Below, in pieces: positions 14,960-64,000 of a stretch of 64,000 nucleotides of DNA. Source of the DNA: a virus (Duplodnaviria; Caudoviricetes); IMG/VR virus record IMGVR_UViG_3300035544_000079, positions 1 through 64,000 of that record; one strand, given 5' to 3'. A program made the translations under genes and the position numbers. The notes below the pieces were generated by a model. It saw only the letters and a program-made list of their open reading frames with translations. It was not told where the DNA came from and did not search any database. Position 1 is the first letter of the stretch. Every line of letters begins with the position of its first letter.

Positions 14960-15790
14960 TTATTCATTTGTTTCTCCTTTATTTAACTCTTTTCTATATT
15001 TTTTATCCACTAAAACTCTATATTTATGAGGTACTTGTTCTAAAATAGCTTCAACAACTTCCCTAATACCATAATAAGCAGAACCACTTCCTCTTAATTC
15101 TATAAAGTGTTTTAAACTTCTTAAGTTAAATGTCCAAATACCTTCTGTTAACCAACTTTCTGGTAATATTCTTTTAACTCTATCATTTTGTTTCTTTTTA
15201 GCTCCACCAGTAAGACCTTTTTTAAGGGGTTCTTCATAATTATAATGAATTAACATATTATCTAAGTAAGATACAATTGTTTCAATTAAATCTTTATTTA
15301 GATGAATTATATTATTAGATACAACTTCATAAAAATTATGATATGCTTTATCATCATTTAACTTTGAATTAGGTATTATTGACTCATTATAGTCTATCCA
15401 AGCATTAATTAAATCTTCGATAGTATATCTGCTTGATTTTTGACTTGTAGGCATACCTATTCGGTGTCTATTCCACTCAATAATAATTTCCCTAGATACA
15501 TTTTTAACATAAAAACTTAAATTAATATGTTCAGCAACAGACTCATGGAAATAAACATTAAAAAGTTTATCTAATAAATCTGAATGGTCAATATCTTTAT
15601 TTTTACTTAATTCTTCAAGGAACTTATCAGGTTCTTTTTTGAATAAATTTACTAACTCATTTTCACTTAAGTCGAAGCTATTGTAACAAACTCTACCTCC
15701 AATCTCACCTAAGATTAGAGGGGAAGCATGAAGTAATCTTGCTTTAGGTTTCTTGTATTGTTCTATAATCTCTCCTTTACATTTCTTCAA
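14960..15790 (-). CDS. thyX: flavin-dependent thymidylate synthase
   Basis: HESVAEH, SREIIIEWNRHR...SQKSSRY, RILP, NLRSLKHFIELR. Confidence 0.93.
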   Translation of the reverse strand: MKKCKGEIIEQYKKPKARLLHASPLILGEIGGRVCYNSFDLSENELVNLFKKEPDKFLEELSKNKDIDHSDLLDKLFNVYFHESVAEHINLSFYVKNVSREIIIEWNRHRIGMPTSQKSSRYTIEDLINAWIDYNESIIPNSKLNDDKAYHNFYEVVSNNIIHLNKDLIETIVSYLDNMLIHYNYEEPLKKGLTGGAKKKQNDRVKRILPESWLTEGIWTFNLRSLKHFIELRGSGSAYYGIREVVEAILEQVPHKYRVLVDKKYRKELNKGETNE

Positions 15791-16602: not shown

Positions 16603-17568
16603 TCAATCCTCACAAAAAGGACTATTTTCTGATAATTTTTCACAAAGTTTATTAAAAAAATCATTCCGAAGATAATTCTTACTATAGCTTTGATTATCTT
16701 TTTTCTTTAGAACCTCTTGAAAATATATGATATCTTCATCTTTATAAATATTATACCCTTGAAAACATAAGTTGATAAAAGCTTCTTCAGTATTAGTTAA
16801 ATTAAATTCCTCCATATAATTATAAAAAAGAGTCTTTTTATCAACTGAATCTAAAATATCATCAGAAAAATCTATATTTTCAATATCATAATAAATACTT
16901 TTTCTGAATCTATTAATTACTTTTATATCAATATCTTGAACTTTACATAAATCAATTAATCCCTCTCCTTGTATTTTATTAAGTATTTGTTCAACCTCAG
17001 TTTCCATTTCCTCTATACTAGAAGGTGTTTTTAAGTGTTTACCATAAAACATTACCTTATAAACTACTTCATCATTATTTGTATAGAAGAATACCTCTTT
17101 ATTTTCATTTTTATCTAAGTCATAAATATTTTTACTTTCAATTTCAAAAGTTAAAGACATTTTTTCAATAATCTCATTAAGTAAATCATATTTATTGGTA
17201 TGTTTTTTAACTTTAATATTACAGAAAACCTTGTACTTAAACTCTTGAGGGTTTTTTACCATAACCTTTTGAATGTTTAAATAATCTCTTGTCTTTATCT
17301 TATCAAACAAGTAGTTATAAAGCTTTTTATTTGCTTCTTGTTTTTCAAGGTTATTTAAAATACTTATTATCTCTTGTTTATGTTTAGAGACAATATCTGA
17401 AATATAATTTTCAGTAGTATCTTTTGGAACATTATACATATGTAATAACTTTTGAGCTAACCTACTACAAAGTCCTTTTGAAACTTTTTCTACTTTATTC
17501 TTCTTTTGGACATATTTTCCAAAAATAATCTCAAATTGAGACTCCGTTAACTTAACTTTTGTATCAAT
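16603..17568 (-). CDS. hypothetical, possibly sigma/HTH-like regulator; probable ATT start
   Basis: Frame stays open 43 codons above the ATG at 17439, up to AAGGAGG-N5-ATT. Confidence 0.5.
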   Translation of the reverse strand: MDTKVKLTESQFEIIFGKYVQKKNKVEKVSKGLCSRLAQKLLHMYNVPKDTTENYISDIVSKHKQEIISILNNLEKQEANKKLYNYLFDKIKTRDYLNIQKVMVKNPQEFKYKVFCNIKVKKHTNKYDLLNEIIEKMSLTFEIESKNIYDLDKNENKEVFFYTNNDEVVYKVMFYGKHLKTPSSIEEMETEVEQILNKIQGEGLIDLCKVQDIDIKVINRFRKSIYYDIENIDFSDDILDSVDKKTLFYNYMEEFNLTNTEEAFINLCFQGYNIYKDEDIIYFQEVLKKKDNQSYSKNYLRNDFFNKLCEKLSENSPFCED

Positions 17569-18991: not shown

Positions 18992-20482
18992 TTAACCTTT
19001 AATCAATCTTTTGCTAAATTTTACTTTATAACCTAACTCTTGTTCGATTAACAAGCTCAACTCATCTAGGTTTACATCTTCCTTTGTAATAAAAGCGTCA
19101 TAAAGAAGTAAATCATGTGAATAGTTCTTAGTAATTAAATCAAGTATTTGACTTTCTATACCAAAATAGTAGTGCATAATCGCCTTATTTGTATTCCATT
19201 TACTCATATATTTAGCACTTTTATTTCCTCTTGAATTATACAGAATATCTTTTCCATTTTTATCTTTCTTTAGAAACTTATTTTGAATAGATTTCTTTAG
19301 GTAAGAAAATAATTTCTTACACTCATCATAAATGTCATAAGCACTTGGGGTATTTTGTAAAATATATTGAATTTTATCTACACCATAATCATTAGCCCAA
19401 GAGTTAGTATGTACCCCATATATCCCTAAATTAGCTCCAAAGAATATTGCTAAATAAAATTCTTTAGCTTCTTTATAAGAAAAGCCTAAATCAACAATTT
19501 CTTGTCTACACTTTTCCTTATTATCAATATAGTATTTTATCTTAGGAAAATCATGTGTTTTATGATACTTCTCACCTGTTTGATATAAAATAGTAGGAGC
19601 TGAATTTTCAATATCTATTTCATAATACCCTTCAAAAACTTGTTCCCTGATACTTTTTTCTAAGTTTTGTATGCCAATATACTTCTCTCCACCAAAATTA
19701 ACTAATCTACCTCCATCTTTTCTTTCATAGTTTAAAAAATGATTTCCATTATTGTACTTGAAATCTAAATTAAATAGAATTATAAAATCAGTACTATACA
19801 TTAAATCAGTTTCTCCATCTGTAACTCTTTTTATTAAGTTTTTTACATTCTCTTGATTATAAGTAAACTTATGTCGGTAGCTCATTCTTGGTCTATTAGA
19901 CGGAGTTATTGCTGTACCTTGTGCTAACTCTTTAATTTCATAAGAATATTTATTAATATTTTTACTTAATTCAGTTCTTGTCAAATTTTCTCCTTGCATT
20001 AAATCTTTCTTTGTACTGTACTTATTATTATTATTTGGATTTATATATCCAATTTTGGTTTTAAACTTCTCTCTTGTGTAATATCTTGTCCTAGAACTCA
20101 TACCATAACTATATAACTCTATAATAAATTCATACCGTAGTCTATAAGCAAAAGTCTTTTCAGTAAAACTATTACAAACTTTACTATCTTTAATTGATTC
20201 AAAGAAATAGTCAAAGCTTTTCATTTTATTAAACCTTTTAAGATTTCTAGTTACATTACTAAAATAATCATAATATATTGAAACATATCCTTTATATTCT
20301 TTATGTTTAGCAAAGTTACTATTTATAGACTTATTTATTAAATAAAGTAAGTCAAAAGTATGTCTAAAGTCATAGAATTTATCATAATGGTTATTAAGAA
20401 ATTTATTTAAATCAAAGTTAGTGCTAATTAATAAATCTTTTGATTTAACTTTACTATGTTTCTTCTCTTTATTTTCTTTTAT
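18992..20482 (-). CDS. PolA/T7-RNAP-fold polymerase-like protein, paralog 1 (probable ATA start)
   Basis: GGRL, EIDIENS, KEFYLAIFFG, LLLYDAF motifs; frame open to AAGGAGG-N5-ATA at 20482. Confidence 0.55.
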   Translation of the reverse strand: MKENKEKKHSKVKSKDLLISTNFDLNKFLNNHYDKFYDFRHTFDLLYLINKSINSNFAKHKEYKGYVSIYYDYFSNVTRNLKRFNKMKSFDYFFESIKDSKVCNSFTEKTFAYRLRYEFIIELYSYGMSSRTRYYTREKFKTKIGYINPNNNNKYSTKKDLMQGENLTRTELSKNINKYSYEIKELAQGTAITPSNRPRMSYRHKFTYNQENVKNLIKRVTDGETDLMYSTDFIILFNLDFKYNNGNHFLNYERKDGGRLVNFGGEKYIGIQNLEKSIREQVFEGYYEIDIENSAPTILYQTGEKYHKTHDFPKIKYYIDNKEKCRQEIVDLGFSYKEAKEFYLAIFFGANLGIYGVHTNSWANDYGVDKIQYILQNTPSAYDIYDECKKLFSYLKKSIQNKFLKKDKNGKDILYNSRGNKSAKYMSKWNTNKAIMHYYFGIESQILDLITKNYSHDLLLYDAFITKEDVNLDELSLLIEQELGYKVKFSKRLIKG

Positions 20483-20893
20483 AATAACCTCCTTATTTAA
20501 CTTAAAATGTATTATATCTAGTATTTACTTAAAGATTACTTAGGTATATAATTTCTTAGTATTAATATTAATATATTTAAAATAGGGTATAACTAGGTTT
20601 AGTATCTAGCTCTTGTTTCCTAGAGTTTTTCCAAAGAGAACCCTTAGCTGACACAAAAACTATACTAATTTTAAGTATTAAATACACTTGTAACTACCAT
20701 TAATACGAGGTTAAGAGGCAAAAATTTAAATGACATTATTTTAGACTTAACGAAAAGTAAGTGTTTTTATTGTACCTAAATAAAAGACTAGAAATATGTA
20801 AATTTTTAAATAAAACTTAACCTATCAACCAACAAAAATCTCAACAAAATATACCTAAACCTTTAAGAATATTACAAATTTCAAAATTTGTTG

Positions 20894-32086: not shown

Positions 32087-32476
32087 ATGGCAAAAAGACA
32101 ATTAGTAACACTAGATTTAGATAAAGAATTTATTTGGACTCCAACAGATGAGATTGATGAAGAAAAGCCTACTAAATTCTACTATAAAGCTTTAAGTAAT
32201 AGAGAATATGAAAAAATAAATGCACATATTATTAAAGCAGAAGATGGAGTTATTTTCTCAGAAGAGGGCGTAGTAAATTATGATACTGTTAAATTAAAAT
32301 TAGTAAAAATTGAAGATATTGAAATAGATGGTTCATTAAAAAATTTTGATAAAAAAGATATTACAGATAAAATATTAGACTCATTACCAAGAGAGTGGAT
32401 TGCTGATTTAGCAACTCAGATTAGAGTAACTTCTATTTTAAAAGGTAAGGAAATAGAGGAATTAAAAAAGTCTTAG
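32087..32476 (+). CDS. tail assembly chaperone (gpG-like)
   Basis: Ends GAA TTA AAA AAG TCT TAG, containing slippery A-AAA-AAG. Confidence 0.8.
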   Translation: MAKRQLVTLDLDKEFIWTPTDEIDEEKPTKFYYKALSNREYEKINAHIIKAEDGVIFSEEGVVNYDTVKLKLVKIEDIEIDGSLKNFDKKDITDKILDSLPREWIADLATQIRVTSILKGKEIEELKKS

Positions 32477-32823
32477 CAGTACAATTTGACGAAAAATTCT
32501 CAGAGTGGAATTGCTCAACTTGTACTGATAGAGACAAGATAACAAGAGGTTGTAAAAGAAAAGATTATAAAGGAGATAAGCCTCCTTTTTATCAAACTTA
32601 TAAAGTTAAAGAATATACTTTTAAAGGCTGTCCTCACTCAGATACAGATTGGGGTATATTAGATGAAGCACAGAGTAGCTATGAGTTTTACTCTGATGGT
32701 TATTTACCAAATAAAGGTACTATACTAGACCAATCTAATTTTTTCATAATAACATCTAAATTAATAAAAACACAGATAAGTACAACCGAAAGAGAAAGAC
32801 TAGAAAAAGCTAAAGGAAAATAG
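32464..32823 (+). CDS. -1 frameshift extension (gpGT-like)
   Basis: -1 frame open from the slippery site to TAG at 32821-32823; contains GYLPNKGTILDQS; no start codon of its own. Confidence 0.8.
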   Translation, partial: KKVLAVQFDEKFSEWNCSTCTDRDKITRGCKRKDYKGDKPPFYQTYKVKEYTFKGCPHSDTDWGILDEAQSSYEFYSDGYLPNKGTILDQSNFFIITSKLIKTQISTTERERLEKAKGK

Positions 32824-48977: not shown

Positions 48978-49613
48978 ATGGATTACAATACATCTGATAA
49001 GTCCAATATATGTTTTAATTGGACAGTAGGTAAAGAGGGTGGGTTTGTACATAATATAGATGGAGATGGTCTATATACGCTCTTTGGGATAACTCAAAAG
49101 TATAACCCTAATTGGGAGGGTTGGGATATAGTAAATCAAATAATAAAAGACCGCCCAAAAGATTATAAAGAAATTATTAATAAAAATACAGAGTTAAAAG
49201 CTTTAGCACAAAAAAGATATAAAAATAAGTATTGGGAAACTCTTTGGGAAGAATTACCAATTAGATTTGGTTTAGTATTTTTTGATATGAGAGTTCAACA
49301 TGGAAGAAGATTAGATAAAGAGATTCAAAAACTTATCAAAAGAAAACTTCCTAAAGAAATTGCTGAATATGAAGCACAAGGAAAAAGATTTGTTGATAGT
49401 TATTATGGAAAGACTACCCAAAAATATATTTTAAAAATGCTTAATCAGTATGGTGAAATGGAAATTTTGTTTCAATTACTTTTAGAGAGGCTTGATTTAT
49501 TTGTAGATTGGGCTGAGTATAAGAATAAAAAACACCTTTATTTTGGTACAACAAAGCATAGAGTGAGAGATTTATATATGGAGATTCTTAAATCAAAATA
49601 TAATGAGGATTAA
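48978..49613 (+). CDS. endolysin, glycoside hydrolase family 108
   Basis: EGGFVHNIDGDG...TLFGIT motif. Confidence 0.8.
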   Translation: MDYNTSDKSNICFNWTVGKEGGFVHNIDGDGLYTLFGITQKYNPNWEGWDIVNQIIKDRPKDYKEIINKNTELKALAQKRYKNKYWETLWEELPIRFGLVFFDMRVQHGRRLDKEIQKLIKRKLPKEIAEYEAQGKRFVDSYYGKTTQKYILKMLNQYGEMEILFQLLLERLDLFVDWAEYKNKKHLYFGTTKHRVRDLYMEILKSKYNED

Positions 49614-49658: not shown

Positions 49659-50884
49659 GGTTTAAACTTCAAACATCTCTCTAAACTTATCATCACCTAA
49701 CTTTAGTAACTTAGCTTTTCTAAAAGGTTTTTCTTCTATAGTATAACTTATATCAATATGGTTTTTAGACCAAAGTACTTCATCACCTTTTTCAATATTA
49801 ATTGTTAAAATATCTTGGTTAAGAAATGTCTCTAAAACAAGATTATAATTAATACCTTCCTTAAACTTACTATTAATAACTTTTCTTACGAAATACTTAT
49901 TATTATTATCATTACCCACGTTATTATCTTTCATGTCTCTCCTTTAATTCTTTTAATTTATTTTTTAACTTTTTATTTTCATTTTCTAAGTCCTGTACCC
50001 ATAACTCTAATATGTTAATACTAGAATAAGCATAATTAATCCCCCTTTCTAAAGATTTTCTCTCTAGTGCTCTAGCTTTAGCTAATCTTTGATAATAAGT
50101 TTCTTTAGTACCTTCTTTATTTAGTATAAAAGGTTCTCTTGTTATCTTTAAATTCTTATAAGTAGTACTTATATACTTAAGAGCTAACTCTTCTGATGAC
50201 CAAACTGAGTCAATAACTGTACTAAAGTTACCATCAACAATTTCATGTACGAGATATATTGGTTGGGTATTTTTCATATTTTTCTCCTTATTTTTTAACT
50301 TTCTAATTTAATTTTTATGCTAGTGAATTATATTGCTAAGAGTGTCAAGATAATCTATTTGTTCTTCACCAATACTAATTCCAATGAATCCACAGTCAAC
50401 ATCACTTGCATTGTCATAATCTTCTTTAGAATAAACACATGGTGTTCCATCTACCATAATAACAACCAAGCCGTGTTTTTTAAGATTTTCCAACGCTCTT
50501 TTTACTCTCGTTATTGCCGACTTTTGTTCCTTAGTTAAATCACAGTATTCAGTAGCCATTTGTATCTCCTTTAATTTTTTAACTTTCTAATTTAATTTTT
50601 AAAATTATGCAATTTATCCCAAAATTTTTTAGGACACCTAATCTTACCAATTTTTACCTACTTTTTAAGTTTCTCCTACCAAATAAACCTTTTTAGTCTT
50701 TCTTGATACATTATTCATTTAGAGCTTTATCTTCAATATTTGTATAGAGAAAGAGGTGTTAAATTAAGTTAGGATTAGTCTTTACATTATTTCTCCTTTT
50801 GTTTTTTTTATGAAATGATTATACAAGAATATTTCCTATGGTTTGCTTAAAGGGGTATTTACAAAGTAATATGTAAAAAGAACT

Positions 50885-52048
50885 CTAAGAGGTTAATTCC
50901 TCGAAATCTCCTTTTATTAAATCTTTACTAAACCTTTTAGGAATTTTTTTCTCTTTAATGTATTTAAACATTTCCTCATCAGAGACCTTGTAATTTCCCC
51001 ATATATCCATTCTATTAAACTGTACTAATTTTTCAAAACTAAATAAATATCCATCTCCTCTTATAAAATTTTTTAAAGTTATATTAACTTTTGCTTCTAA
51101 TATCTGTAAATTATCAACATGGTCTAACCCATTTATATATTTACCATTTAGTGGGACTATATGGTCTATGTGAAATTCTGTTGAATATCTTTTATTGAAA
51201 TACTCCCTAACCCTATAAAGCTTTTTCTCATATTTTTTATCTTCTTTACTTCCTCTTAGCCTTTTAGCCATTTTCATAGCTGTAACTCTTCTACCATGTA
51301 TAGGATTATACTTACTTTTATAATTAACTTTTTTAATGTAATTTAAAGTACATTGGTTACTTTTTCTCCTATACTCAGGGTCATTACTACGTCTCTCTCT
51401 ATTTAAAGCATTCATACACGATTTACACTTCCTAAATTTTAGTATAGAAGGTTTGGAGGATTTAAAACCTTGATTCCCAAGAAGTTCTACTATATTTTCA
51501 TCTTGTAAGAACAATTCCCCACACCTTGAACACTTACCTTGTATCAGTTCTTTACCTTTTGTTAAATTTTTTACTTCAAGTATAAATTTATCTTTTGACA
51601 TAACTCCTTTTAATTGCTCTTGTTTATGTAAATACCTTAAAGTCTTTTCATACTCTTCTCTTAGTCTATGGAAATTTTTAGCAAGGATTGTGTAAGGAAC
51701 TCTTTTATCTATAGGTATTTTACCTTTTTTATCACTAAAACATTTATGACATATACCTTTATACTCATTTACCTCATTATAATATATCCTAAACTGTTTG
51801 CCCATATCTTTATTTTTATAGAATTTTGTTTTACAACAAGTACATTTAAAAAACCCTTTAGTCTTTGTATTCATATTTTCTAAACAAGTTGAGCAATATT
51901 CTTGTTTTTTAAATAAAATATTTTCAGGAAAAGGTCTTCTATGTAACTTTTTTACTCTTTTCCACTCATTGTTAGGATTATATCTGTTAAACTTTTTACC
52001 ACAATCCTTACAAGTATATTCTTCCTCTTCTACATATTCATATTTCAT
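50885..52048 (-). mobile_element. HNH endonuclease with CxxC repeats
   Basis: HIDHIVPL...GLDHVDNLQ motif plus multiple CxxC; ATGA-coupled to the upstream polymerase-like gene. Confidence 0.78.
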
Positions 52049-53646
52049 TCTAATAATTCCTCGAAATTACTTTCTAATTTTTCTTTACTAAAAGTTAAAT
52101 CATAACCTAACTCTTTCATAACAATTCTACTTAATTCCTCTAAGTCAATATTATTAGGAGATATAAATTCATCAAATAATAATAAACTAATATCATACCT
52201 TTTACAAACTATATCTAGGATTTGACTTTCTACACCATTATAAATAAAACTTAATACTTTAGGGTTATTCCACTTATCAAGGTTTTTAGAAGTACCTCTT
52301 GTATTTAATACTTTGTACTTTGTTTTCAACTCTTTAGCATTTTCTAAGGCTTTTTGTTTAAAATATTCCCCTAATTCATTATATAAGTAAATAATCTCTT
52401 CAACAATGTTTTGTACTTTAGTATTATTAAGAGCTTTTACTAAATTATCTCCTCCTATACTTTTTACTATAGTTGAATACTGTTCAAGGCTTTCAAGATT
52501 AGTTGATAAATTAGCTCCAAACAATAAAGCTGTAAAATACTGTTTAGCTTGTTTATAAGTAAAACCTTCTTTTACAAGCTCTTGTCTGAATTGTTCTTTA
52601 TCTCTAATATATTCCTCAATATAATAAAAGTTACACTTCTTTGCAATAAACCTCCAATAAAGTTGATAAAATACATTTATAACTGCCGTATTAATATCAT
52701 AAGCATATTGCCCTTCAAACATTACTGCCCTAAATTTACTAGGCAACTGTTGTGGAACAATATTACTATTATAATTAGCCCTTTGGTAAAGTCTCCCTCC
52801 ACCTTTTCTTTGATAAACAAATGTACTTTCTAACCCTTTTAAATCCCTAAAATCAGAAACTACCGAAGCAAAGTGAATACAATTTAACATATTACTATTG
52901 TTACTAACATTCCTTTTTAAAAAAGAAATACAATCATCAATTCTTTCATCATTTAGTTTAGGGTAATGTTGGAAGTCAATATCTCCCTTTAACTCTTTTT
53001 TAGTAAGAACTTGTCTATGTTGTTTTGATGGTAATGTTTTAAATACTTCCATATACTTTTCCATAAAATCTTCTGTTTCTCTGTTAGACAACCCTAATTC
53101 CTCCTTCATTTGTTTTCTAGTTAAATAGATTTCTTTATTCATAATATTATAACATATCTTTTCTTCAAACTTTCTTAAGTAATATGTTATTAGTTTATCT
53201 TCTGTTGAGACAAATGCTAAATAGACATCTTCTAAAATACCTTCTTTTATTCTATACCCTTTAGTATATCCCTTAGTATTATAGGTATTTATTTCATTAT
53301 CTCTTAAGTAAAACCTATACCCTAAATCTTCCTCAAAGATTTCATAAAAGATATGTTTCTTATGTCTTGTTGCATAAGTACCTAATATCTTATCTAATGT
53401 TTTAAAACTTATTGAGTAAAGGTTCTTATCCTCAGAGTGTGAAAGAATAGAACCTTTTTGAATTAAGTTAAAGAGATATATAATAGAGTATGTTTGCTTA
53501 AAGTTTTTTTGAAGGATTTTATACTTACTTATTATCTTATTGTAATTAACCTTAGAGACAAACTCTGTAGGTATCTTATCTTTAGTATTCTTAGTATCAG
53601 TACTAATTGTATTAGTCTTATGTTTATTCTTATCTATACTTTTTAT
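52045..53646 (-). CDS. PolA/T7-RNAP-fold polymerase-like protein, paralog 2 (probable ATA start)
   Basis: GGRLY, YDINTA, KQYFTALLFG, LLLFDEF; frame open 168 codons above ATG 53142 to AAGGAG-N5-ATA. Confidence 0.55.
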   Translation of the reverse strand: MKSIDKNKHKTNTISTDTKNTKDKIPTEFVSKVNYNKIISKYKILQKNFKQTYSIIYLFNLIQKGSILSHSEDKNLYSISFKTLDKILGTYATRHKKHIFYEIFEEDLGYRFYLRDNEINTYNTKGYTKGYRIKEGILEDVYLAFVSTEDKLITYYLRKFEEKICYNIMNKEIYLTRKQMKEELGLSNRETEDFMEKYMEVFKTLPSKQHRQVLTKKELKGDIDFQHYPKLNDERIDDCISFLKRNVSNNSNMLNCIHFASVVSDFRDLKGLESTFVYQRKGGGRLYQRANYNSNIVPQQLPSKFRAVMFEGQYAYDINTAVINVFYQLYWRFIAKKCNFYYIEEYIRDKEQFRQELVKEGFTYKQAKQYFTALLFGANLSTNLESLEQYSTIVKSIGGDNLVKALNNTKVQNIVEEIIYLYNELGEYFKQKALENAKELKTKYKVLNTRGTSKNLDKWNNPKVLSFIYNGVESQILDIVCKRYDISLLLFDEFISPNNIDLEELSRIVMKELGYDLTFSKEKLESNFEELLE

Positions 53647-53825
53647 ACTTACTCCTTTCTATTAATATATTATAATAATCCCTAACAACCTTTCGACAAA
53701 GGAAGCAACACGCCTGTATATATTGTACATTTTAGCATTTTTTTATGTAAAAAGTCCCTTGCCATGGGGTCTAGCACCCGTAATCGTTAAGTATTTAATC
53801 CTCTATATTTTATTTTTAAAATCTT

Positions 53826-54020
53826 TTAACCAACCAAAACTTCTCTGACTTTATCTTTCCCAAAAGCTTGTAATAAAATAATATATGTTTCAAGCATTTT
53901 GCTAATACACTCTTTGTTAGATTTACTTAAAGTAGTTGGGTGTAAGTTAAAAATCTCACAGAACTCTTTATTTGTACTATCTAAATCAAGTAATCTTTTT
54001 TTGAATTCTTTATAAGTCAT
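53826..54020 (-). CDS. small HTH DNA-binding protein
   Basis: NKEFCEIFNLHPTTLSK HTH-like pattern. Confidence 0.55.
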   Translation of the reverse strand: MTYKEFKKRLLDLDSTNKEFCEIFNLHPTTLSKSNKECISKMLETYIILLQAFGKDKVREVLVG

Positions 54021-54140
54021 ATTCCTCCTTTCTTATCTATTAGATATTCTCTATTAATATATGGGGCGTTTTTATGATTTTACACTTTTTTATTTAACTA
54101 AATTTAAAAATTTGTATCCTTATTAAAAGGAATGGCTTAA

Positions 54141-54662
54141 TTAAACTCCAAAATACCTCTTAATATCCTCAACCTTAATGAACTCATAATTATTACAATC
54201 AATATTAACATTAAAGTATCTTTTATCAACTTCTCCGTTATCTAAGATAGCTCTTTTTGATAAATCTTTGTTATAATGTAAATGACCTTGAAGATTTCCG
54301 ACTCTTTCTCGTATTTCTTGAGGGTGAATAGGACAATGAGATACCCACATATTCTTATAACTAAACAAAGGTAATTGAATCTCAATATTAGGGTGTCTTT
54401 CTCTATATAAATTCTTTGAATCATGGTTTCCTAATACAATCTTTAACTTAGCCTTTATTTGCCTTATTTGCTCCATATATGACTCATAATTATCCCCATC
54501 AAAAATAAAATCCCCTAAGATATATAATGTATCTCTTTTAGTAAGACTTAATATTTTATCAATCATAAATTGGTGGTGTTCCTCAGCAGAGTTAAATCTA
54601 GTTCTATACTTATTTATTGACTTGTGATTGATGTGAATGTCACTTGTAAAATAACAAGCCAT
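54141..54662 (-). CDS. calcineurin-like metallophosphoesterase
   Basis: SDIH, LGD, GNHD, SHCP, GHLH motifs. Confidence 0.9.
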   Translation of the reverse strand: MACYFTSDIHINHKSINKYRTRFNSAEEHHQFMIDKILSLTKRDTLYILGDFIFDGDNYESYMEQIRQIKAKLKIVLGNHDSKNLYRERHPNIEIQLPLFSYKNMWVSHCPIHPQEIRERVGNLQGHLHYNKDLSKRAILDNGEVDKRYFNVNIDCNNYEFIKVEDIKRYFGV

Positions 54663-56623
54663 CTATTTCTTCCATTCTTCTAAGTCTTTAATAATAAGGC
54701 ATCTTCTATCTAAATAATTAAGGCTTTGTTTTAAATCTCTTTGACCTAATATTCCTCCATAAGAATTTGAGATAATAATTAATCTTTCCTCTGTTTTTAC
54801 TGTGTTAATTACCCTAATAATATCTTCTATAGTATTTAAAGTTTCCAATTCTTTCTCCTTTTAAAGTAAAATATATAACAAAATACAAAGTATAATTAAA
54901 ATAACAAGGAAATTAAGACCTATTGAGTCTACTTTAATCTCATCTTCCATTTCTTTAATTTCTTCTTTTGTTCTATATTGTTTACCTTTATAAAAATAAG
55001 CTCCCATATCAATCCTCCACAAATATATTATTCTTAGCTCTATATTCAAGCTCTTCTTTTAAAGTATCTACATAAATACCCTTATAACCGTCATTTATAT
55101 AAAGCTCTTTATTAAGGTCTTCATGTTGAACATAATCGTGAGTAAACCTTGAAACAAGCTCTGTTCCATCAGGTGTTATAATACTATTTCTTAGGATTCT
55201 TTTTTCCATCTATTTCTTCACCTTTCCTTTACCTTTACTATTGCCTTTAGTTCCAATAGGAACAATCTTACTATCAATCTCTTTAGTACCTCTTGATTTA
55301 CGTTCTTTTTCAATAGCTTTCAACAAAGGTTCATAAAGAGCTTTTTCTCTTTTACTTTGTTTTGAACTAATTATCTTAATAATATGTACTAAATGCTCAT
55401 TTGAATAAGAACTTACTTTCTTAATTTCTTCTTTAATTTGTTTTGTTAATTTCTTTTCTTCGTCTTTGTTCATTATATCCTCTACATACTTAATTTACTA
55501 AGATTTTTCTTAAGATTTTGTTTAAAATCATTATATTTTAACATAAGTTTATAAACTTCTTTCTTAATTAAAAGTTCTTGATAATTACTATCCTTACAGT
55601 ATAAATGAATGTTACTTCCTAAATTATAAAATTCAGTAATATCCTTATCTAATTGAATATACTTCTCAGCTTTTGCCGACTTAGATACTTTAGTAAGGCT
55701 CTTCTCTATTTTACTTTTATAAGTAAAGCACATAGTACTCATACTGTTTAAAATATCCTCTTTGTATTCATTTGCTGATAAGCTACTTAATAAACCCAGT
55801 ACTGTAACTCCTGTTACTATAATCTTTTTCATTTATTCTCCTTCTTTTCTAATCTTGTTTTTCTGTTAATTTATAATCTACTTCTAATAAAATATCAAAG
55901 CAATTATAAACACCATTAATCTTATTATCTCTAATTATGTAATAAGTAAGTATATACTCATAAACCTTAAAAGAACATAAAAATGGAATAAATAATCTAA
56001 ACATAGTGAACAAATTATATTCAGATAATCTTTTATATTTCTCAGCTTTTAAAATACCCTTGGTTGTATTAAGTGTTTCCCAAGATATAACTCCAAACCA
56101 TATTGTATAAATTCCTATTGAAAGAAAGTTAAACAAATAACCTACTAGAACTATTAAATAAATATCATTCATTTATTCCCCTTATTTACTTTGTTTAAAG
56201 AATCTAATAATTCTTGTTTTTCTTTAACTTCCTTTAAATACTCTTGTATTTCTAAATCATCTACTATATCTTCATCTTTTACAGCTATTTCTAGTAAGTC
56301 ATTTATATAATCATCCATATTAATAATTACTCCTTTAAAGTCATCTGTAAAAGGACAATAAAGATAAATTTCTATTTCACCTTTTTCTTCAGCTAAAAAT
56401 AAAGGGTAAAGTTCCTCTAATATTTCTTCTTTATCTTCTTCTGTTTCCTCATAACAAATAATATCTCTTCCTCTGTTTCCATCAATATCTGCTCCGTAAC
56501 TATGTTCAATATAAAACATATTTTCTCCTTTTGTTTTTTATTTTGTTTTGATAAGATAATTATAATAGAAGTTTTATTAAAGTAAGCTTAAATATAATTA
56601 AGTAAGTATAAATAGTAGTATAT

Positions 56624-56687
56624 ATTATAGAAAGGTATTATAGAAAGGTGTTATAGAAAGGTGTTATAGGGAAGTAGTATAGAAAGT
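56624..56687 (+). repeat. tandem 13-bp repeats (RTTATAGAAAGGT)
   Basis: Three near-perfect and two degenerate units in an intergenic region. Confidence 0.85.
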
Positions 56688-57255
56688 AGTATTAGAGGGA
56701 ACTAGCCCTCTAAAGATTCTTGTAAATTTTTTATTTTAGTTTCTAGAATAAATATTTCATTAAGCAAGATTTGGTTAGGACAATTTGAAATATTACCTAG
56801 TATTAAATCATTTAAAGAATAACTTATATTAGGGTCTATCTGCTTTGACTTTTCAGTTATAAGTGTCTTGAGAGTTTTTATTCTCTCAAGTTTTTCTTGG
56901 TATGTTATTTTAGTAGTTTCCATAGTTCTCCTTTATTTTGAGATTGATACTAAACAAGTATCTTCGTTATAATGTATTTGAGATGGTTTGATTTAGTAAC
57001 TAACCATGTTTGTAGCTCATCTCTTGTATAAGTTGGTTGAGGCATATTTCTAGCCCTACAATTAGTTCTTTGTGTAGTATGAGTTTCAGTAATAAATACT
57101 TTAGGCATTTTTCTACCACAAGATTTACATAATCCTCTTTTATAAAAACCTTTTTTAGGTCTTTCTTGTTTACATTTATAGCAATATTTTGTTTTAAATT
57201 TGACTCCCTTAAATTATATTTATTTTATTATAACAAAAGGAGTCTTAAATATTGC

Positions 57256-58569
57256 TTAATTTTTGTTAAGGTTTTTATCTTGTTCTACTTCTAACATATC
57301 AATCTTGAATAAGTTCCTTGAAACCTCTCCATATTTTTTATGATAAGTAATAGCTTTAACTTCCCCAACATTACCTCTAAATCCTGCTCCATCAGCCCAA
57401 GCATCTCTAGGGGGTAAGTTTTTATGAATCTCAATAGACATCATAGCATCTTCTTTAGATAACATTTTATGATTAGAATGTAAATGACCTATATTCCAAT
57501 ATCTATATTTAGTTTCTGAGAAAATATCAATATTGTCTTCAATCATACATTCTGTTAATTTAGTTTTATTTAAGATGGTATGCCCATGTGAAAAGCCTAA
57601 CAGCACTTTATTAAACTGATAGTACTGTGTTAGCCTATTATCCCCAACAATCTCTACTCTAGGTTCATCTTTAAAATAAGCCCGTAATACTGCTTTTAAG
57701 TAGTAACTAGAGTTCTCACTATGATTACCTGAAACAGATAATACTTTTACATATTTATGCTTTTGTAATGCTTTTTTCACTAACTCAATCATAATACTAA
57801 AAGTTTCTTCAATAATTCTACTATGCCTACTATCCACATCTAGCGAATGACCTGAAACCGTTTGTTTTGTATCATCATTTGCATGAAGTAAATCCCCCAT
57901 TTCGGCTATTAAACAAGTTTCAGAATTAGGAGCAACTGTCATAAGATAATCAAAACTTCCTAAAATCCACTTTCTAGCAATTTTTAAATCATAGTTATAT
58001 CCACTAATTTCTTCTAAAGCTAACATTGCAATATGTAAATCTGTGTAAGGGTACATAGTCAATAAATCTGAATTTTGAGCTAAAGTTAAATCACATTTAA
58101 TAGGTGTGTATTTTTCATTAGCCTTATTTAAAATACTTGCTAATGCTGTTTCTACTCTTTCCATCTCAGCATCTTCTGTTAACTCTCTTTTGACTAAGGA
58201 TTTAATCTCTTTCCTAAGAACATTATTGTTATGTTGTTGAGTCATAACAGATTTTCTAAGCTTTAAGTTTTCTTTTACAACACTCTCTAATTCTTCCTCT
58301 AATTTATGTTCAATATCATAATCTGCTCCAGATTCAATAGCTAAGTCTTTATTTAATTTAAGAACACTTTCAGCTCTTTCTGCTTTAGTAGCATTTTTAA
58401 AACCAATTTGATAAGCAAGGTATCTAAAAGAATTATAATCAACCTTGTAATCCTCACAAAGAGTTCTTAAAGGTCTATCCTTATCTTGATATTCTTGTAA
58501 GAACTTATTAAAATCTTCTTGACTTAAGTCAAACCTATCTTTAAATTCATTTACTAATTTTGTTTTCAT
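57256..58569 (-). CDS. metallophosphoesterase with N-terminal helical/coiled-coil domain
   Basis: TDLH, MGDLLH, SGNH, SHGH, IGHLH motifs. Confidence 0.85.
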   Translation of the reverse strand: MKTKLVNEFKDRFDLSQEDFNKFLQEYQDKDRPLRTLCEDYKVDYNSFRYLAYQIGFKNATKAERAESVLKLNKDLAIESGADYDIEHKLEEELESVVKENLKLRKSVMTQQHNNNVLRKEIKSLVKRELTEDAEMERVETALASILNKANEKYTPIKCDLTLAQNSDLLTMYPYTDLHIAMLALEEISGYNYDLKIARKWILGSFDYLMTVAPNSETCLIAEMGDLLHANDDTKQTVSGHSLDVDSRHSRIIEETFSIMIELVKKALQKHKYVKVLSVSGNHSENSSYYLKAVLRAYFKDEPRVEIVGDNRLTQYYQFNKVLLGFSHGHTILNKTKLTECMIEDNIDIFSETKYRYWNIGHLHSNHKMLSKEDAMMSIEIHKNLPPRDAWADGAGFRGNVGEVKAITYHKKYGEVSRNLFKIDMLEVEQDKNLNKN

Positions 58570-59372
58570 TTATCTCCTTTAATCTTTATCATCTTCAAAT
58601 ATTTCACCACAGTCCTCACAATTAGTATCTAATGAGCTAATTTCCTCACCACAGTTAGGACAAGTAAGGTAATCAAGAGGACTATATCCACTACTTAAAC
58701 AAATATCTAATCTTTCAGCTTCTTTAAGAAATTCTTGATTATCAGTTACTAATGTAATATCTCCTTTTTCAATCTCTCCATAAATTTCCGAGTGTTTACC
58801 TAATACCTCACCGAAGTAAATTTCCTTACCTATTAAAGCATCAACTTCTTCTTGTGTTGCTAAAAACCTACCTTCTAAATCACCATTTCTACCACAATCC
58901 CAATAGAAATCATATAGATTAACTTGTTCTTCCATTAATTTTCCTCCTCAATAATATTAATTAAATCATAAACTTGTTCCTCTAAACAAGTTCCACCATT
59001 ATAAAAATTAAATTCGTATTCTACTTGTCCACTCTCCTTAACCCTGTATTCAAAAATATCTCCGTTGGGGTCTTTTTCTTCATTTTGTATTTGGTAAATC
59101 CTATCATTATTAATATAGTAACCATAGTCAGCTAAAGTATCATAACAAAACGCTCTAAAATCACTTTCATCAGTTAAATCATAATAACTAGGAACTTTAA
59201 TATTCTCCTCTTGAACTAATTTATTAATAAAGTCTTTTGGACTCATTCCTATTGAGACTCTTTTTAGAGTTCCTTTGTGTCTTTCATAATAACTTATTAT
59301 TTCTCCTTTATTTTAAATTTATTTGAAAAGGTATCATACTTCATAATACTTTAAACCTATCTTAAGTACATC

Positions 59373-61016
59373 TTAAAAAGTATCCTTTGCTTCAAATATT
59401 TGATTAAACCTCCTTAATTTAGTTATCTTTTCAGTATATTCCTCCTCATGCCATGAGAATTTCTTCATTGGTGCTAATAAAGCAAAATGACTTTTCTCAT
59501 TAAAGTTAAAGATAAATACCTCTTGGTTAATAAAGTTAGGAACAATCTCAGGGCTTTCACTTATTCTAGTTGTATGAAGAATAATCTCTTCTTTATTATC
59601 TAAGAAAGTAAACCAACCTCTATTCCTTCTTCTATTAAATTCCGTTAAAACAGCTTTTCTATATTTTACTCCATTAGTAAGTAATAATAAATTCCTAAAC
59701 ATAATAGTTATAGGTAACTTATCTCCTAAACTTATATTAAGTAAAAGATAATTTAACAAATGGTGTAAAGAATGAAATACAAAACCTTGTTGTTTATGAA
59801 GCTTTACTTTTCTTACTCCATATTCATCAGCAAAATGTTGTATATTTTTCTTTAATTGTTTAATATCTTTATTATATGTACTATAACTATATTGGTATTT
59901 CATAGCTTTTTCTGTTAAGAAACTGTTACAAAGCTTTTTCTCTGTACTACAAACAAGAACATCTAAACTATTATCTTGATTAATATAACCTATAAATAAA
60001 AATGTTGTACTTTTCATTCCCCTACGAGCCATTGTTTCAAAATAATCTTTAAACATTCCCTCAATATTTGTTTTAATAATACTTCCGTATCTTAAGAAGT
60101 AACAAATCTTTTTAGGATTTTTATTATAAGAACTTCCTTTATAAAGAAATACTGGAAATCTTGGGTGATATTCTGTATCATCAAGAGGTTTTTCTAATGA
60201 CTTTTTCCACATATATATCTTTCTAGCCTTTCTTCCACGTTCTCTATAATAATCCCTTATTTCTCCATCAGTAGGTAATACAATCTTATCCTTCCACTTA
60301 CTGCCACCAAAACCTTTTAAGTCCATAAATTTATAGAAGTTTCTTTCATTAACTTCTGAACCTTTACCTATAAAATGTCTATGAAGAATAACCTTATCAG
60401 TTAATGCCATATACCTTTGCATTTTAAGTTTTTGATTATCCCAAAGTTCTTTAAGAAGGTGTTTAGGAACTTTAAAAACATTATCTCCATTAATAAACTT
60501 AACTAAAAAGTCCTGAAGGTAATTACTTTCTGAATAAATATACTCCTCAAAATAAGGTCTAAGTTCTTCTTCCTTAACACCATATTCTACCATAAAATCT
60601 AGTTGAGGAAAATTAATGTTCTTTCCTGTTTTAGTATCTTTTTCTAAATCACTTTCTAAGGGTAAAAACTTATCCGTAGGAATTGGACTAAACAAAAGCC
60701 TTTTAACAAAATAACCAATAACAATATTAAGTTCAGCTCTGTTATCATTATTCCTATACAGAATCTTTCTTAAATAAGCTTGTTTATCTTCAGCACTTGG
60801 AATCTTATCTAACTCGTGAATAAACTCCATAAAAATCCTAATAATAGTATCCTTAATAAAAAATATATTAAAAGTTGTTTTTAATTTACCTTTCTTAGGA
60901 ACTGTTATAGCTTTCTTTGTAGACATAAGATTTGGAACATACACTTCTTTAGTCTTTTCTTCTTGTTCTACTTTAGAGAACGATTGTTCTACATTTTGTT
61001 CTAACTCTTCTGACAA
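59373..61016 (-). CDS. large hypothetical protein
   Basis: 547-aa ORF, TTG start directly after the upstream stop codon. Confidence 0.6.
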   Translation of the reverse strand: MSEELEQNVEQSFSKVEQEEKTKEVYVPNLMSTKKAITVPKKGKLKTTFNIFFIKDTIIRIFMEFIHELDKIPSAEDKQAYLRKILYRNNDNRAELNIVIGYFVKRLLFSPIPTDKFLPLESDLEKDTKTGKNINFPQLDFMVEYGVKEEELRPYFEEYIYSESNYLQDFLVKFINGDNVFKVPKHLLKELWDNQKLKMQRYMALTDKVILHRHFIGKGSEVNERNFYKFMDLKGFGGSKWKDKIVLPTDGEIRDYYRERGRKARKIYMWKKSLEKPLDDTEYHPRFPVFLYKGSSYNKNPKKICYFLRYGSIIKTNIEGMFKDYFETMARRGMKSTTFLFIGYINQDNSLDVLVCSTEKKLCNSFLTEKAMKYQYSYSTYNKDIKQLKKNIQHFADEYGVRKVKLHKQQGFVFHSLHHLLNYLLLNISLGDKLPITIMFRNLLLLTNGVKYRKAVLTEFNRRRNRGWFTFLDNKEEIILHTTRISESPEIVPNFINQEVFIFNFNEKSHFALLAPMKKFSWHEEEYTEKITKLRRFNQIFEAKDTF

Positions 61017-61622
61017 TTATTTCTCCTCAAGTAGTAATTTTAAAGTATTTTTAAAAGAGTAATAGTTATCTTTAGATTTTCTATACTTTAATTCTAAATC
61101 TTTTTCTATTTTATCAATATTATTTTTATAATAATTCAAGAAAAACTCTTTACCTTGTGAAGTTAGAATATCAAAAAGGTAAAAAGGATTAACATAATTG
61201 TTATAAGGATTATGGAGATTTCTACCATATTCTATATTATCTAGGTACTCTACTCCTTTATAAATTCCTGATTTTATAACTAAATTATTTGAACCACTTC
61301 TCTCCCTCCAACCTCTACTATAACCTAGATTGTTTTTATGTAATGTAGTATCCACTGTTAAAAAACTCAAAAACTTTTCCAATTCAATAGGATTTTTGTT
61401 ATTATTCATTTGGCATTTATCTGTACCTAGCTTTCTTTTTAATTCTTCTAAATCCATATTTTCTCCTTTTATTTTAATGTTTCATTTATAAGTAGTATTG
61501 TAACAATATTAACCTTAAAGTTTCATTAAAAGTATATTAATAACACTTGGTTATAAGTATAGGCGTTTTTATGTTAGTTTAAGGTTAGTTGTAGTAAGTA
61601 GTTTGTTAGTATCTCAAGAGGA

Positions 61623-63320
61623 TTATTCCTCCCAAGATAGTGTAGATTGATTATCTTCTCTATAAACATTTAGAGTGTAATCACTTTCGATAGTTTCACC
61701 GTGATGGACGGTGATTATACTTTTATTAGGAAACTCTTTAGTAATATATCTTAAAAGCTTTCCTACTTCTTTCTTCCCACTCTCATCAATATTACTTAAA
61801 ACCTCGTCCAAGAATAATAAGTTAATATCAACATTTGTAAGTGTTTTAATACTTAAGTTCAAAGCTAAACATAAAAGAATATCTACCCTTCTTTGTGTTC
61901 CAGAACTTAAATCAATGTACCTTTGTATTAAACCTTGTTCTTTATAAACAAGTTCAAAAGTATCTTTAGAGGTATTCTCTACCCAAATATTAATTTCATT
62001 ACCTAAAGCTTTTGAACTAATCTTTGAAAGAGTTCCATTAAAAAGTTCTATAAATAATTTGATTCTTTCTTTTACAAAGCCCTTAGCTCCAGTACAAGCT
62101 TTAATCAATTCATAAACATAAACTTTATCTCTAAATTCTGTTAAAGCAATTTCATTAGAAACTATTTCTTCATTAGCCTTAGCTAAGTCTTTTCTCAGCT
62201 TATTCCTAAGAGTTACTTTATCTGAACTTTCTTCATTAGCTTTTATCTCTTTGAGTCTTTTAATCTCATTCTCTAAAAGGATTTCTTCTTTAGTAATCTT
62301 TTCAAACTTTGTTCTTAATCCTTGTAAGATTTTATACTTCCCTAAGTTATTTGTTTTTAAATCTTTCCTTTGAGTTGCTAGTTCAGTAATCTGTTCTTGA
62401 ATATTTTCAAACTCACCTTTCAAAGAATCAATATTCTTAATCTCTTGTTTGCAGGTAGGACATTTACTAAGATTAAGTATCTTTGAACTCTCTGTTTGTT
62501 GTTTCTTAAGAAAGTCTATTGAACTTGTTAATTCATTTACTTTACTTTCTTGCCCTTTTATTTCAGACTCAAATTCTTGTAACTCTTTTTTGGCTTTACT
62601 TTTATTATAAACAATTTCTTCAAGAGTTTCCTCTTTGGTTGTTATATCAAGAATATCTACTGAGTTATGTTTAATCATATCTAGGTGTTCTTTAAGATTA
62701 TTAACATTACTTTGTAAAATACTTTGTTCCTTGACTTTCATATCAAGCTCTAACTTAAGAGACTTTAATTCAATATCAGCTTTTTTATTAATATCTGTTA
62801 TGAACTCTAAACTAAGTAACTCTTTAATAAAATTACTTTGAGCTGTATCCTCAGAGGTACTAAATAAGCTTAGTTTCTGAGGACTTAAAAAGAACAATTT
62901 ACTAAAAGTATTAAAACTTAAACCTAATTCTTTTTCAAGTTCATTTTGTTTAGTTACTTTATTAGAGTATCCACTAGGAATATCATTAATATAATATTCA
63001 AAAAAGTTCTTAGAATAATCTCTTTCTATAATAAGTTCATCAATAGAATCTTCTCGGATAAGGTCTATATAAATCTTTCCATAGAATTTCTTGTTAGTAT
63101 GTTTATTATAAATTTCTTTTTGAGCTTTTCCTATTAAATTCTTTCCGTAAATACATTGACAAACTAAAGAAGGTAATGAGCTTTTGCCACTTCCATTAGA
63201 ATCAAACTTTCCATCAGTTTGACCATTAAGAGCTACTAACCCTTCTCTATTTTCAAAGGAAACTTCTGCATCATTATACAAAAGAAATCCTTGTGTTTCT
63301 ATCTTTTTAATTTTTACCAT
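61623..63320 (-). CDS. SbcC/Rad50-like ATPase (gp46-like)
   Basis: NGSGKSS Walker A, CPTC zinc hook, LSSG signature, LFLDE Walker B; ATG 63320 fits better than 63380. Confidence 0.9.
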   Translation of the reverse strand: MVKIKKIETQGFLLYNDAEVSFENREGLVALNGQTDGKFDSNGSGKSSLPSLVCQCIYGKNLIGKAQKEIYNKHTNKKFYGKIYIDLIREDSIDELIIERDYSKNFFEYYINDIPSGYSNKVTKQNELEKELGLSFNTFSKLFFLSPQKLSLFSTSEDTAQSNFIKELLSLEFITDINKKADIELKSLKLELDMKVKEQSILQSNVNNLKEHLDMIKHNSVDILDITTKEETLEEIVYNKSKAKKELQEFESEIKGQESKVNELTSSIDFLKKQQTESSKILNLSKCPTCKQEIKNIDSLKGEFENIQEQITELATQRKDLKTNNLGKYKILQGLRTKFEKITKEEILLENEIKRLKEIKANEESSDKVTLRNKLRKDLAKANEEIVSNEIALTEFRDKVYVYELIKACTGAKGFVKERIKLFIELFNGTLSKISSKALGNEINIWVENTSKDTFELVYKEQGLIQRYIDLSSGTQRRVDILLCLALNLSIKTLTNVDINLLFLDEVLSNIDESGKKEVGKLLRYITKEFPNKSIITVHHGETIESDYTLNVYREDNQSTLSWEE

Positions 63321-63518
63321 AACCGTAATACTCCTTTGAAAAGTTTGGTCTATGGGGTAAATCATTATCAAAAATACCAAATCTTCTTTTATGTTTACTA
63401 TGAGGTTTTGGTAGTCTCATTCCTAAATCTTCTACAAGATTACATTCTAATTCTATCTCTCCACTTTTTGCTTTTAAAATTTTATCTCTCTTTTCTTCGT
63501 CCGTCATTCCTCCTCCTT

Positions 63519-64000
63519 TTAATCTTTTTGTTCAACTTGACTTTCTAAAGTAGTATAGGTAGAAACTAATTTATCTTCAAGTCTTTTATCTTCATTTGTT
63601 TTAACAATATATTCTAACAAGTTTTTGCTTACAGATTTCTTATCTAAACATTGTTTTACTAATTTATTGTAATTAATCTTTTGATAATCTGTATCATTCA
63701 TACTAAGATTGATAAATTCTCTTATACAAAAGTTATCTATATCTTTATGTTCTTTAAAAGCTCTTTTAATTTTATCTATCATAAATTTTTTACCATAAAT
63801 TCTTACTTTATAAAAAGCTTTATTATCTTTATTGTCTTGCCTCATTTCTTCAATAATATTATCAATATTATCTAAATCCTCTAACTTAATATGTTTAAGT
63901 TTTTTTTGGTAAGGACTTTCTTTATTGAATAATACTATTCGTTTATATTCCCCAGTTTCTTCATTAAGTAATAATACCGAAGGAGTTGAACTAAGTTTGT
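63519..64000 (-). CDS. C-terminal part of probable SbcD/Mre11-like nuclease (runs off window)
   Basis: Frame of 63519-63845 stays open to the window edge; lies upstream of the SbcC-like gene. Confidence 0.5.
   Translation of the reverse strand, partial: KLSSTPSVLLLNEETGEYKRIVLFNKESPYQKKLKHIKLEDLDNIDNIIEEMRQDNKDNKAFYKVRIYGKKFMIDKIKRAFKEHKDIDNFCIREFINLSMNDTDYQKINYNKLVKQCLDKKSVSKNLLEYIVKTNEDKRLEDKLVSTYTTLESQVEQKD

Follow-up and report, generated by a model that had tools for sequence, protein, structure and literature searches.

We find that the two diverged polymerase-like paralogs encoded by this phage are almost certainly translated from upstream of the ATGs at which they are publicly annotated, as judged from the sequences of the phage and its relatives, and that in both the start codon is probably an AUA led by a Shine-Dalgarno (SD) sequence. 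Both N-terminal extensions opened in this way are coding. The overall explanation that we favor, and consider likely, is that each gene yields an AUA-started, two-domain polymerase-like protein whose weak start codon is compensated by its SD.

The stretch of DNA analyzed here (the window) is the first 64 kb, or 64,000 nucleotides, of IMG/VR record IMGVR_UViG_3300035544_000079, a linear metagenome assembly of 72,135 bp with a GC content of ~27% and a CheckV completeness of 79%. The record is laid out as follows.

~21.0-49.6 kb, rightward: structural arm with terminase, head, tape measure, and tail genes and a GH108 endolysin
48978-49610, inside the rightward structural arm: the GH108 peptidoglycan endolysin gene
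1-20.5 kb and 49.7-72 kb, leftward: two arms of replication and nucleotide-metabolism genes

Products of the leftward arms include the large and small subunits of ribonucleotide reductase, ThyX, and a ClpP-like protein. Because the genome encodes a peptidoglycan endolysin, the host of the phage is expected to be a bacterium. No close cultured relative was found in the phage collection, and both paralogs went unmatched in a tblastn search of 50,697 phage records. The window likewise gave no match to Rfam, and its promoter-like sites were not above the number expected from shuffles.

Both paralogs lie in the leftward arms, and their start regions contain the following elements.

52045..53646, minus strand: paralog 2 coding sequence as redefined here, 533 codons from ATA (stop included in the coordinates)
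53644..53646, minus strand: proposed AUA initiation codon of paralog 2, the sole near-cognate codon with an SD
53652..53658, minus strand: paralog 2 SD, AAAGGAG, 5 nt (TAAGT) before the ATA
53659..53664, minus strand: in-frame double stop TAA-TAG that closes the paralog 2 frame, ending four codons upstream of the ATA
18992..20482, minus strand: paralog 1 coding sequence as redefined here, 496 codons from ATA (stop included in the coordinates)
20480..20482, minus strand: proposed AUA initiation codon of paralog 1
20488..20494, minus strand: paralog 1 SD, AAGGAGG, 5 nt (TTATT) before the ATA
20527-20525, minus strand: in-frame TAA upstream of paralog 1, 14 codons before the ATA

An earlier note on this DNA had described the same anatomy for both genes (a strong SD, a 5-nt spacer, ATA, and an in-frame stop upstream), and this description is correct for each paralog. 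It had also described the frames as open for 168 codons (paralog 2) and 86 codons (paralog 1) above the called ATGs, and so they are: the first in-frame ATG, GTG, or TTG of paralog 2 is the ATG at 53142, and the first canonical codon in the frame of paralog 1 is the ATG at 20224. These are the codons from which the public calls begin, giving proteins of 365 and 410 aa, respectively. Since neither paralog has an ATG, GTG, or TTG between its upstream stop and its first conserved residues, the start of both must be noncanonical.

Several lines of evidence bear on the coding status of the extensions. Base shuffles of the paralog 2 extension were never free of stops (0/20000), and those of paralog 1 were stop-free once (1/20000); the other two frames of the natural sequences hold 17 and 33 stops in paralog 2 and 7 and 28 in paralog 1. 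Among the coding-strand open reading frames (ORFs), the longest leaders devoid of a start codon are those of these two genes. By BLASTP, the paralogs share 30% identity over 490 residues (E 2e-42), in an alignment that begins at residue 48 of paralog 2 and residue 38 of paralog 1, with the called Met169 and Met87 far downstream. A word-index search returned four full-length relatives (P0002-P0005) of 491-524 residues, which cover 93-97% of the ATA-started protein, and a profile search of 1.84 billion representatives returned 1035 relatives at E <=0.001, most of them 450-520 residues long. The earlier note had proposed checking homologs for the extension and its start codon; relatives do have the N-terminal extension, many of them with a canonical start at the aligned position.

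The predicted structure of the protein is in keeping with these alignments. AlphaFold2 modelled the 533-residue paralog 2 with a pLDDT of 85 and a pTM of 0.83, with disorder limited to residues 1-22 and one loop. Residues 23-215 were modelled as a compact alpha/beta domain (pLDDT 78-97), and the N-domain modelled on its own gave the same picture. The called Met169 sits between strands 161-168 and 172-174, inside the beta-sheet of this domain, so that a protein begun at residue 169 would miss most of the N-domain. For this domain of ~190 residues, structure comparison gave a best Z of 4.2, with weak winged-helix-like matches and no clear structural relative.

Residues 215-527 of paralog 2 are predicted to adopt the palm/fingers/thumb fold of family A polymerases. 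Structure comparison gave a Z of 14.5 to Klenow 1d9d (rmsd 3.9 over 270 aligned residues), 14.3 to Pol theta, and 11.0 to T7 RNAP, and Foldseek matched the apicoplast apPOL and bacterial Pol I at E ~1e-5. All 38 sequences compared have D317, K368, and D492, which would fit motifs A, B, and C, an assignment made from position in the modelled fold and local sequence and not from residue-level superposition. Searches of both paralogs against Pfam and PHROGs returned no family, and a profile search of PDB sequences returned no match; because of this, we call the proteins family A-like by fold and do not name them as members of a family.

We compared the ATA codons with the starts that this phage uses elsewhere. 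Its AGGAG-led canonical starts number 39 (31 ATG, 7 TTG, and 1 GTG), and these lie 4-9 nt from the GGAG, with a mode of 5-6. The distance from GGAG to ATA is 5 nt in paralog 2 and 6 nt in paralog 1, inside this range, and each paralog has just one near-cognate codon at the spacing used by the canonical starts. Paralog 2 has more ATA and ATT codons within its first 25 residues, which are poorly conserved and disordered. In paralog 1, an in-frame ATT (20485-20483) directly precedes the ATA and lies only 2 nt from the GGAGG; it is the less likely start codon of the two. Overall, 4 of ~43 AGGAG-led starts in the phage are ATA or ATT, with spacing that matches that of the canonical ones.

This count comes from a scan of every coding-strand AGGAG that heads an ORF lacking a canonical start 4-9 nt downstream. 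For nonoverlapped ORFs of at least 120 codons, all such AGGAG sites were followed by an in-frame ATA or ATT at 5-6 nt. Two further matches, one of them at 44301 with CTA and ATA at 6 and 9 nt, were judged spurious, as they head short ORFs that are overlapped by longer ones. RNA folding of four initiation regions showed no structure beyond that of shuffles (z -0.5 to +1.3), and for this reason we propose neither a riboswitch nor a thermosensor.

The scan brings in genes unrelated to the polymerase-like paralogs, and ThyX is a possible further case.

16603..17568, minus strand: unrelated 321-codon gene with ATT at 17568-17566, 5 nt after AAGGAGG at 17580-17574
58935..59297, minus strand: unrelated 120-codon gene with ATA at 59297-59295, 5 nt after AAAGGAG at 59309-59303
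14960..15766, minus strand: ThyX gene with a possible ATA start at 15766, 5 nt after AAAGGAG

The first of these is publicly called as 278 aa from the ATG at 17439; six homologs of 322-335 aa cover its extension, and its ATT and SD are kept, with one change in the spacer, in L018, a locus that encodes a 90% identical protein. The second is publicly called as 103 aa. The family phrog_6035 aligns to it from residue 2, and with two orthologs, 120 and 122 aa long, the alignment begins at residue 1; in an 81%-identical ortholog (L026), the same SD leads an ATG at the identical nucleotide position. ThyX may start at its ATA, and this case is ambiguous: the alternative start, TTG 15790, falls within the upstream gene and is not preceded by an SD. 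All four, perhaps five, AUA/AUU genes are located in the leftward arms, where strong SDs occur. The structural arm has weaker AAAGGA-type sites and canonical starts only, nearly all of them ATG.

We also examined how relatives of the paralogs begin at the DNA level, where ~14 lineages, phylogenetically dependent on one another, could be read. An ATG stands at the aligned N terminus in L003/L011, L004/L012, L010, L015, L016/L017, L018, and L020, the last of which belongs to the 92-kb phage G001, complete and with terminal repeats; L006 has GTG and L013 has TTG at this position. Two relatives from independent assemblies lack these codons there. In L007, TAAGGAGG is followed after 6 nt by an ATA, which opens a 144-codon extension above the called internal TTG, and in L009, GAAGGAGG is followed after 9 nt by an ATT, which opens a 49-codon extension. 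A search for related loci with two patterns in viral contigs and genome contigs found none; a further pattern found G001 only, and a metagenome scan found 4 loci. In G001, 82 SD-led starts are canonical and no more than one, itself ambiguous, is ATA; since such starts are nearly lacking there, the ATA/ATT habit does not extend to the lineage as a whole. In several of the relatives, a conserved 74-aa ORF comes after the polymerase gene.

In a maximum-likelihood tree, paralog 1 groups with L013 (TTG) and adjoins L007 (ATA) and L009 (ATT), with L016 (ATG) outside, and paralog 2 is placed in the other clade, surrounded by relatives that start with ATG or GTG. Because the paralogs sit in different clades and their nearest relatives start with TTG, ATG, or GTG, the two ATA starts are independent of each other. 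The inner paralog-1 clade uses a non-ATG codon in 4/4 cases (ATA, TTG, ATA, and ATT), and sister pairs differ in the codon, so a weak start appears, from these sequences, to be maintained in this clade. The earlier note had taken the convergence of two diverged paralogs on the same codon as a sign of selection. Its convergence is borne out by the tree, whereas there is only partial support for a selected, IF3-sensitive attenuation that would be confined to the paralogs.

How the ATA codons came to be there, and whether they are the true starts, allows several readings besides the one we favor. Translation from the downstream codons (ATG 53142 or TTG 53091 in paralog 2 and ATG 20224 in paralog 1), with the upstream frames as untranslated remnants, is what gene callers have chosen (P0001 and P0007), and TTG 53091, which a perfect AAGGAGG precedes by 8 nt, could give rise to a 348-aa isoform. 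This reading is nevertheless very improbable, as the extensions are stop-free against odds of <1e-4 and show homology to each other and to relatives of full length. A confidently modelled domain would also be split at residue 169, and neither called ATG is well served: ATG 53142 has no SD, and ATG 20224 has a weak AAAGG only, ~9 nt upstream. Readthrough or fusion from an upstream ORF was considered separately and rejected, given that a TAA-TAG stands before paralog 2 and that near paralog 1 none of the frames contains a canonical codon. It is also very unlikely that ATA was introduced by faulty sequencing or assembly, or represents a minority variant in a population whose true codon is ATG. 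The source is indeed a metagenome assembly, and the ortholog of the gene starting at 59297 does have ATG; however, four or five such sites, all of them otherwise intact, occur on one contig, ATA is seen again in the independent assembly of L007, ATT is kept between the window and L018 despite the spacer change, and errors would not pick out start codons behind strong SDs. Least of all do we expect ATA to be decoded as Met, whether by an altered genetic code or by a dedicated tRNA for initiation or elongation, which would make these starts ordinary. ATA does specify Met in several mitochondrial codes. Against this, at the 16 internal ATA codons of paralog 1, relatives have ATT or ATC 42 times versus ATG 2 times, and at the 17 internal ATA codons of paralog 2 the corresponding counts are 31 and 5; in addition, no tRNA gene was found in the 72-kb genome. 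Since the internal ATA codons align with the Ile codons ATT and ATC of relatives, the genetic code is unchanged.

A reading that keeps the AUA starts and differs over their origin is that they are an adaptation specific to the paralogs, in which a dosage-sensitive polymerase or primase would be kept low and responsive to IF3, by analogy with infC and pcnB. We regard this as possible, though doubtful. It is favored by the independent origins of ATA in both paralogs and in L007, by an inner paralog-1 clade that is never ATG (as against ATG in 31 of the 39 canonical SD-led starts), and by ATG members whose SD is either far from the start, at 11-13 nt (L003/L011 and L004/L012), or missing (L016). 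However, unrelated genes of the phage use ATA and ATT too, and one of them differs at its start from a close ortholog simply in having ATA for ATG. Moreover, L015, L018, and L020 pair ATG with a strong SD 5-7 nt away, which speaks against attenuation being needed everywhere in the family, and the pattern as a whole is read from ~14 phylogenetically dependent lineages. A tolerance of near-cognate starts throughout the genome, wherever a strong SD precedes them, accounts for the data no less well than selection acting on the paralogs alone. Of the reading given in the earlier note, an upstream noncanonical start, most likely the SD-led ATA, stands, but the pattern is not peculiar to the paralogs.

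Taken together, our preferred explanation of SD-compensated AUA starts would work as follows. Each gene would give a protein of ~500 residues, begun at AUA, with a folded N-domain in front of a minimal polymerase core of the family A type. The 30S subunit would be placed by a 7-nt SD (AAGGAGG or AAAGGAG) that precedes the AUA by 5-6 nt, and the initiator fMet-tRNA (anticodon CAU) would read this codon with a third-position mismatch, such that the protein begins with Met. The yield would be lowered, and initiation should be open to IF3 proofreading. Most likely, the habit reflects AT-biased change from ATG to ATA, together with tolerance of the change in genes that have a strong SD to make up for it and need little protein. 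The comparisons and the structural model show the anatomy of the starts, extensions that are coding and homologous, the missing canonical start, the recurrence in relatives, and the fold; the exact initiating codon and any selective value are inferred, as are, from known biology, the lowered efficiency and the sensitivity to IF3.

It would be a further step, and to us an improbable one, to see the AUA/AUU genes as a deliberate weak-start class of the early arm that is read via host IF3 proofreading. Were this true, the dosage or timing of both polymerases and a few other early proteins would track the translation state of the host during infection, and the polymerases so controlled would carry a novel, possibly winged-helix N-domain.

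For annotation, the consequence is direct. Because gene finders allow only ATG, GTG, and TTG, proteins of this kind are cut short by 17 to 168 residues: the public versions have 365, 410, 347, 457, 278, 277, and 103 residues, where the real ones would have ~533, 496, 486, 501, 321, 321, and 120. What the polymerase-like proteins lose in this way is a whole N-terminal domain, which is either removed or split. AUA/AUU starts in ~5% of the genes of a phage, and in ~10% of its strong-SD genes, are unusual, and with these genes nature provides compact tests of two questions: to what extent a near-cognate start can be offset by a strong SD, and whether IF3 proofreading is put to use by phages.

As enzymes, the paralogs come closest by likeness of fold to TV-Pol (PMC2579912) and the CcPol-type A-family polymerase/SSB primases (PMC7581432; bioRxiv 10.1101/2022.12.02.518924), minimal family A polymerases of mobile elements and the nearest described kinds. 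In the CcPol-MP type, a small SSB partner with an OB fold is encoded beside the polymerase. Common to both sides are a stand-alone family A core, the lack of a recognizable exonuclease domain, and encoding by a mobile element or phage; as in the TV-Pol/CcPol kind, the putative Asp residues of motifs A and C and the putative Lys of motif B are invariant. Unlike that kind, the paralogs have no sequence-profile match, and their N-domain has no clear structural relative.

As for their starts, there are precedents in two bacteria. In E. coli, the AUU starts of infC (for IF3 autoregulation) and pcnB (poly(A) polymerase) limit expression, and IF3 discriminates against such codons (references in PMC13009471). 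The likeness to the paralogs lies in a weak start codon placed on a nucleic-acid enzyme or translation factor; the paralogs differ from these genes in having AUA and not AUU, and no autoregulatory logic is evident in them. In S. aureus, infC, ccpN, and citZ have AUA starts and cvfC1 has an AUU start, all with an extended SD (Nat Commun 2026, PMC13009471), and such starts give ~10% of the output of an AUG reporter, up to 30% for ccpN (PMC13009471). The S. aureus cases and the phage have in common a near-cognate codon behind a strong or extended SD, a low-GC system, and a conserved N terminus. They differ in that the S. aureus starts were mapped by retapamulin ribosome profiling and reporters, whereas the phage starts are proposed from sequence comparison, and in density, the 72-kb genome of the phage having four or five of them and the whole S. 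aureus genome four. At the level of the sequence features compared, then, the phage starts appear to work like the near-cognate starts of S. aureus and E. coli. The kind of start is thus already known, and what sets this phage apart is the density of such starts in one small genome and the systematic truncation of their products in the databases.

The type of ribosome-binding site differs between the structural arm (21000-49600, + strand) and the two leftward arms (1-20500 and 49700-64000, - strand). Shine-Dalgarno sequences (SDs) of the leftward arms are mostly of the AAAGGAGA type, whereas the structural arm carries weaker AAAGGA or AAGGGG sites, with a start codon that is nearly always ATG.

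Within paralog 2, the polymerase-like gene at 52045-53646 (- strand), an in-frame TTG at 53091 (- strand) lies 8 nt downstream of a perfect AAGGAGG. Initiation at this codon could yield a 348-residue isoform that approximates the polymerase core without the folded N-terminal domain. Alternatively, the SD-like sequence may be a coincidence, as the same bases encode a conserved K-E-E peptide. The full record from which the window comes (G000) also holds, outside the window, an SD-like motif ahead of an ATA.

G000 70089-70331 (70321 region), - strand: AGGAG, 6 nt of spacing and an ATA heading an 80-codon frame

This frame is overlapped by a longer ORF (70662-69796) and is probably spurious.

Several polymerase-like relatives that start at ATG, read at the DNA level, also have odd initiation regions.

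L003 960-983: initiation region, ATG-started relative
L011 2450-2470: initiation region, ATG-started relative
L004 376-396: initiation region, ATG-started relative
L012 393-411: initiation region, ATG-started relative
L016 75-122: initiation region, ATG-started relative

The SD-to-ATG distance is 11-13 nt in some such relatives. L003 and L011 each carry an ATA in frame two or three codons before the ATG, at normal SD spacing. L016 lacks an SD and has TATAAT 6 nt upstream of its ATG; its polymerase-like mRNA may be leaderless.

Three further features of the window concern other genes.

32449-32823, + strand: open frame of 124 codons without any ATG, GTG or TTG
10871-14125, - strand: ribonucleotide reductase large subunit, 1084 aa
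48978-49610, + strand: GH108-type endolysin (Pfam E 1e-11; phrog_315)

The startless frame overlaps the 3' end of the gene at 32087-32476 and is closely followed by the tape-measure gene (32912-36841, 1309 aa), an arrangement typical of a frameshifted tail-assembly chaperone; an AAAGGAG...CTCCTTT motif able to form a hairpin lies at about 32570. In the reductase, a LAGLIDADG-type insertion within the barrel domain (residues 626-682) suggests an intein. The endolysin indicates that the phage host is a bacterium with peptidoglycan.

Directly 3' of the polymerase-like gene, several relatives share a conserved small ORF.

L003 2578-2802: conserved 74-residue ORF
L016 1665-1889: conserved 74-residue ORF
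ENA contig of the full-length relative P0002, 2694-2918: conserved 74-residue ORF

In the window, the place after paralog 2 is taken by a different gene, which overlaps it and encodes 387 aa with a weak HNH-like C terminus. By analogy with CcPol-type primases (A-family polymerase/SSB), the 74-residue product is a candidate small SSB-like partner.
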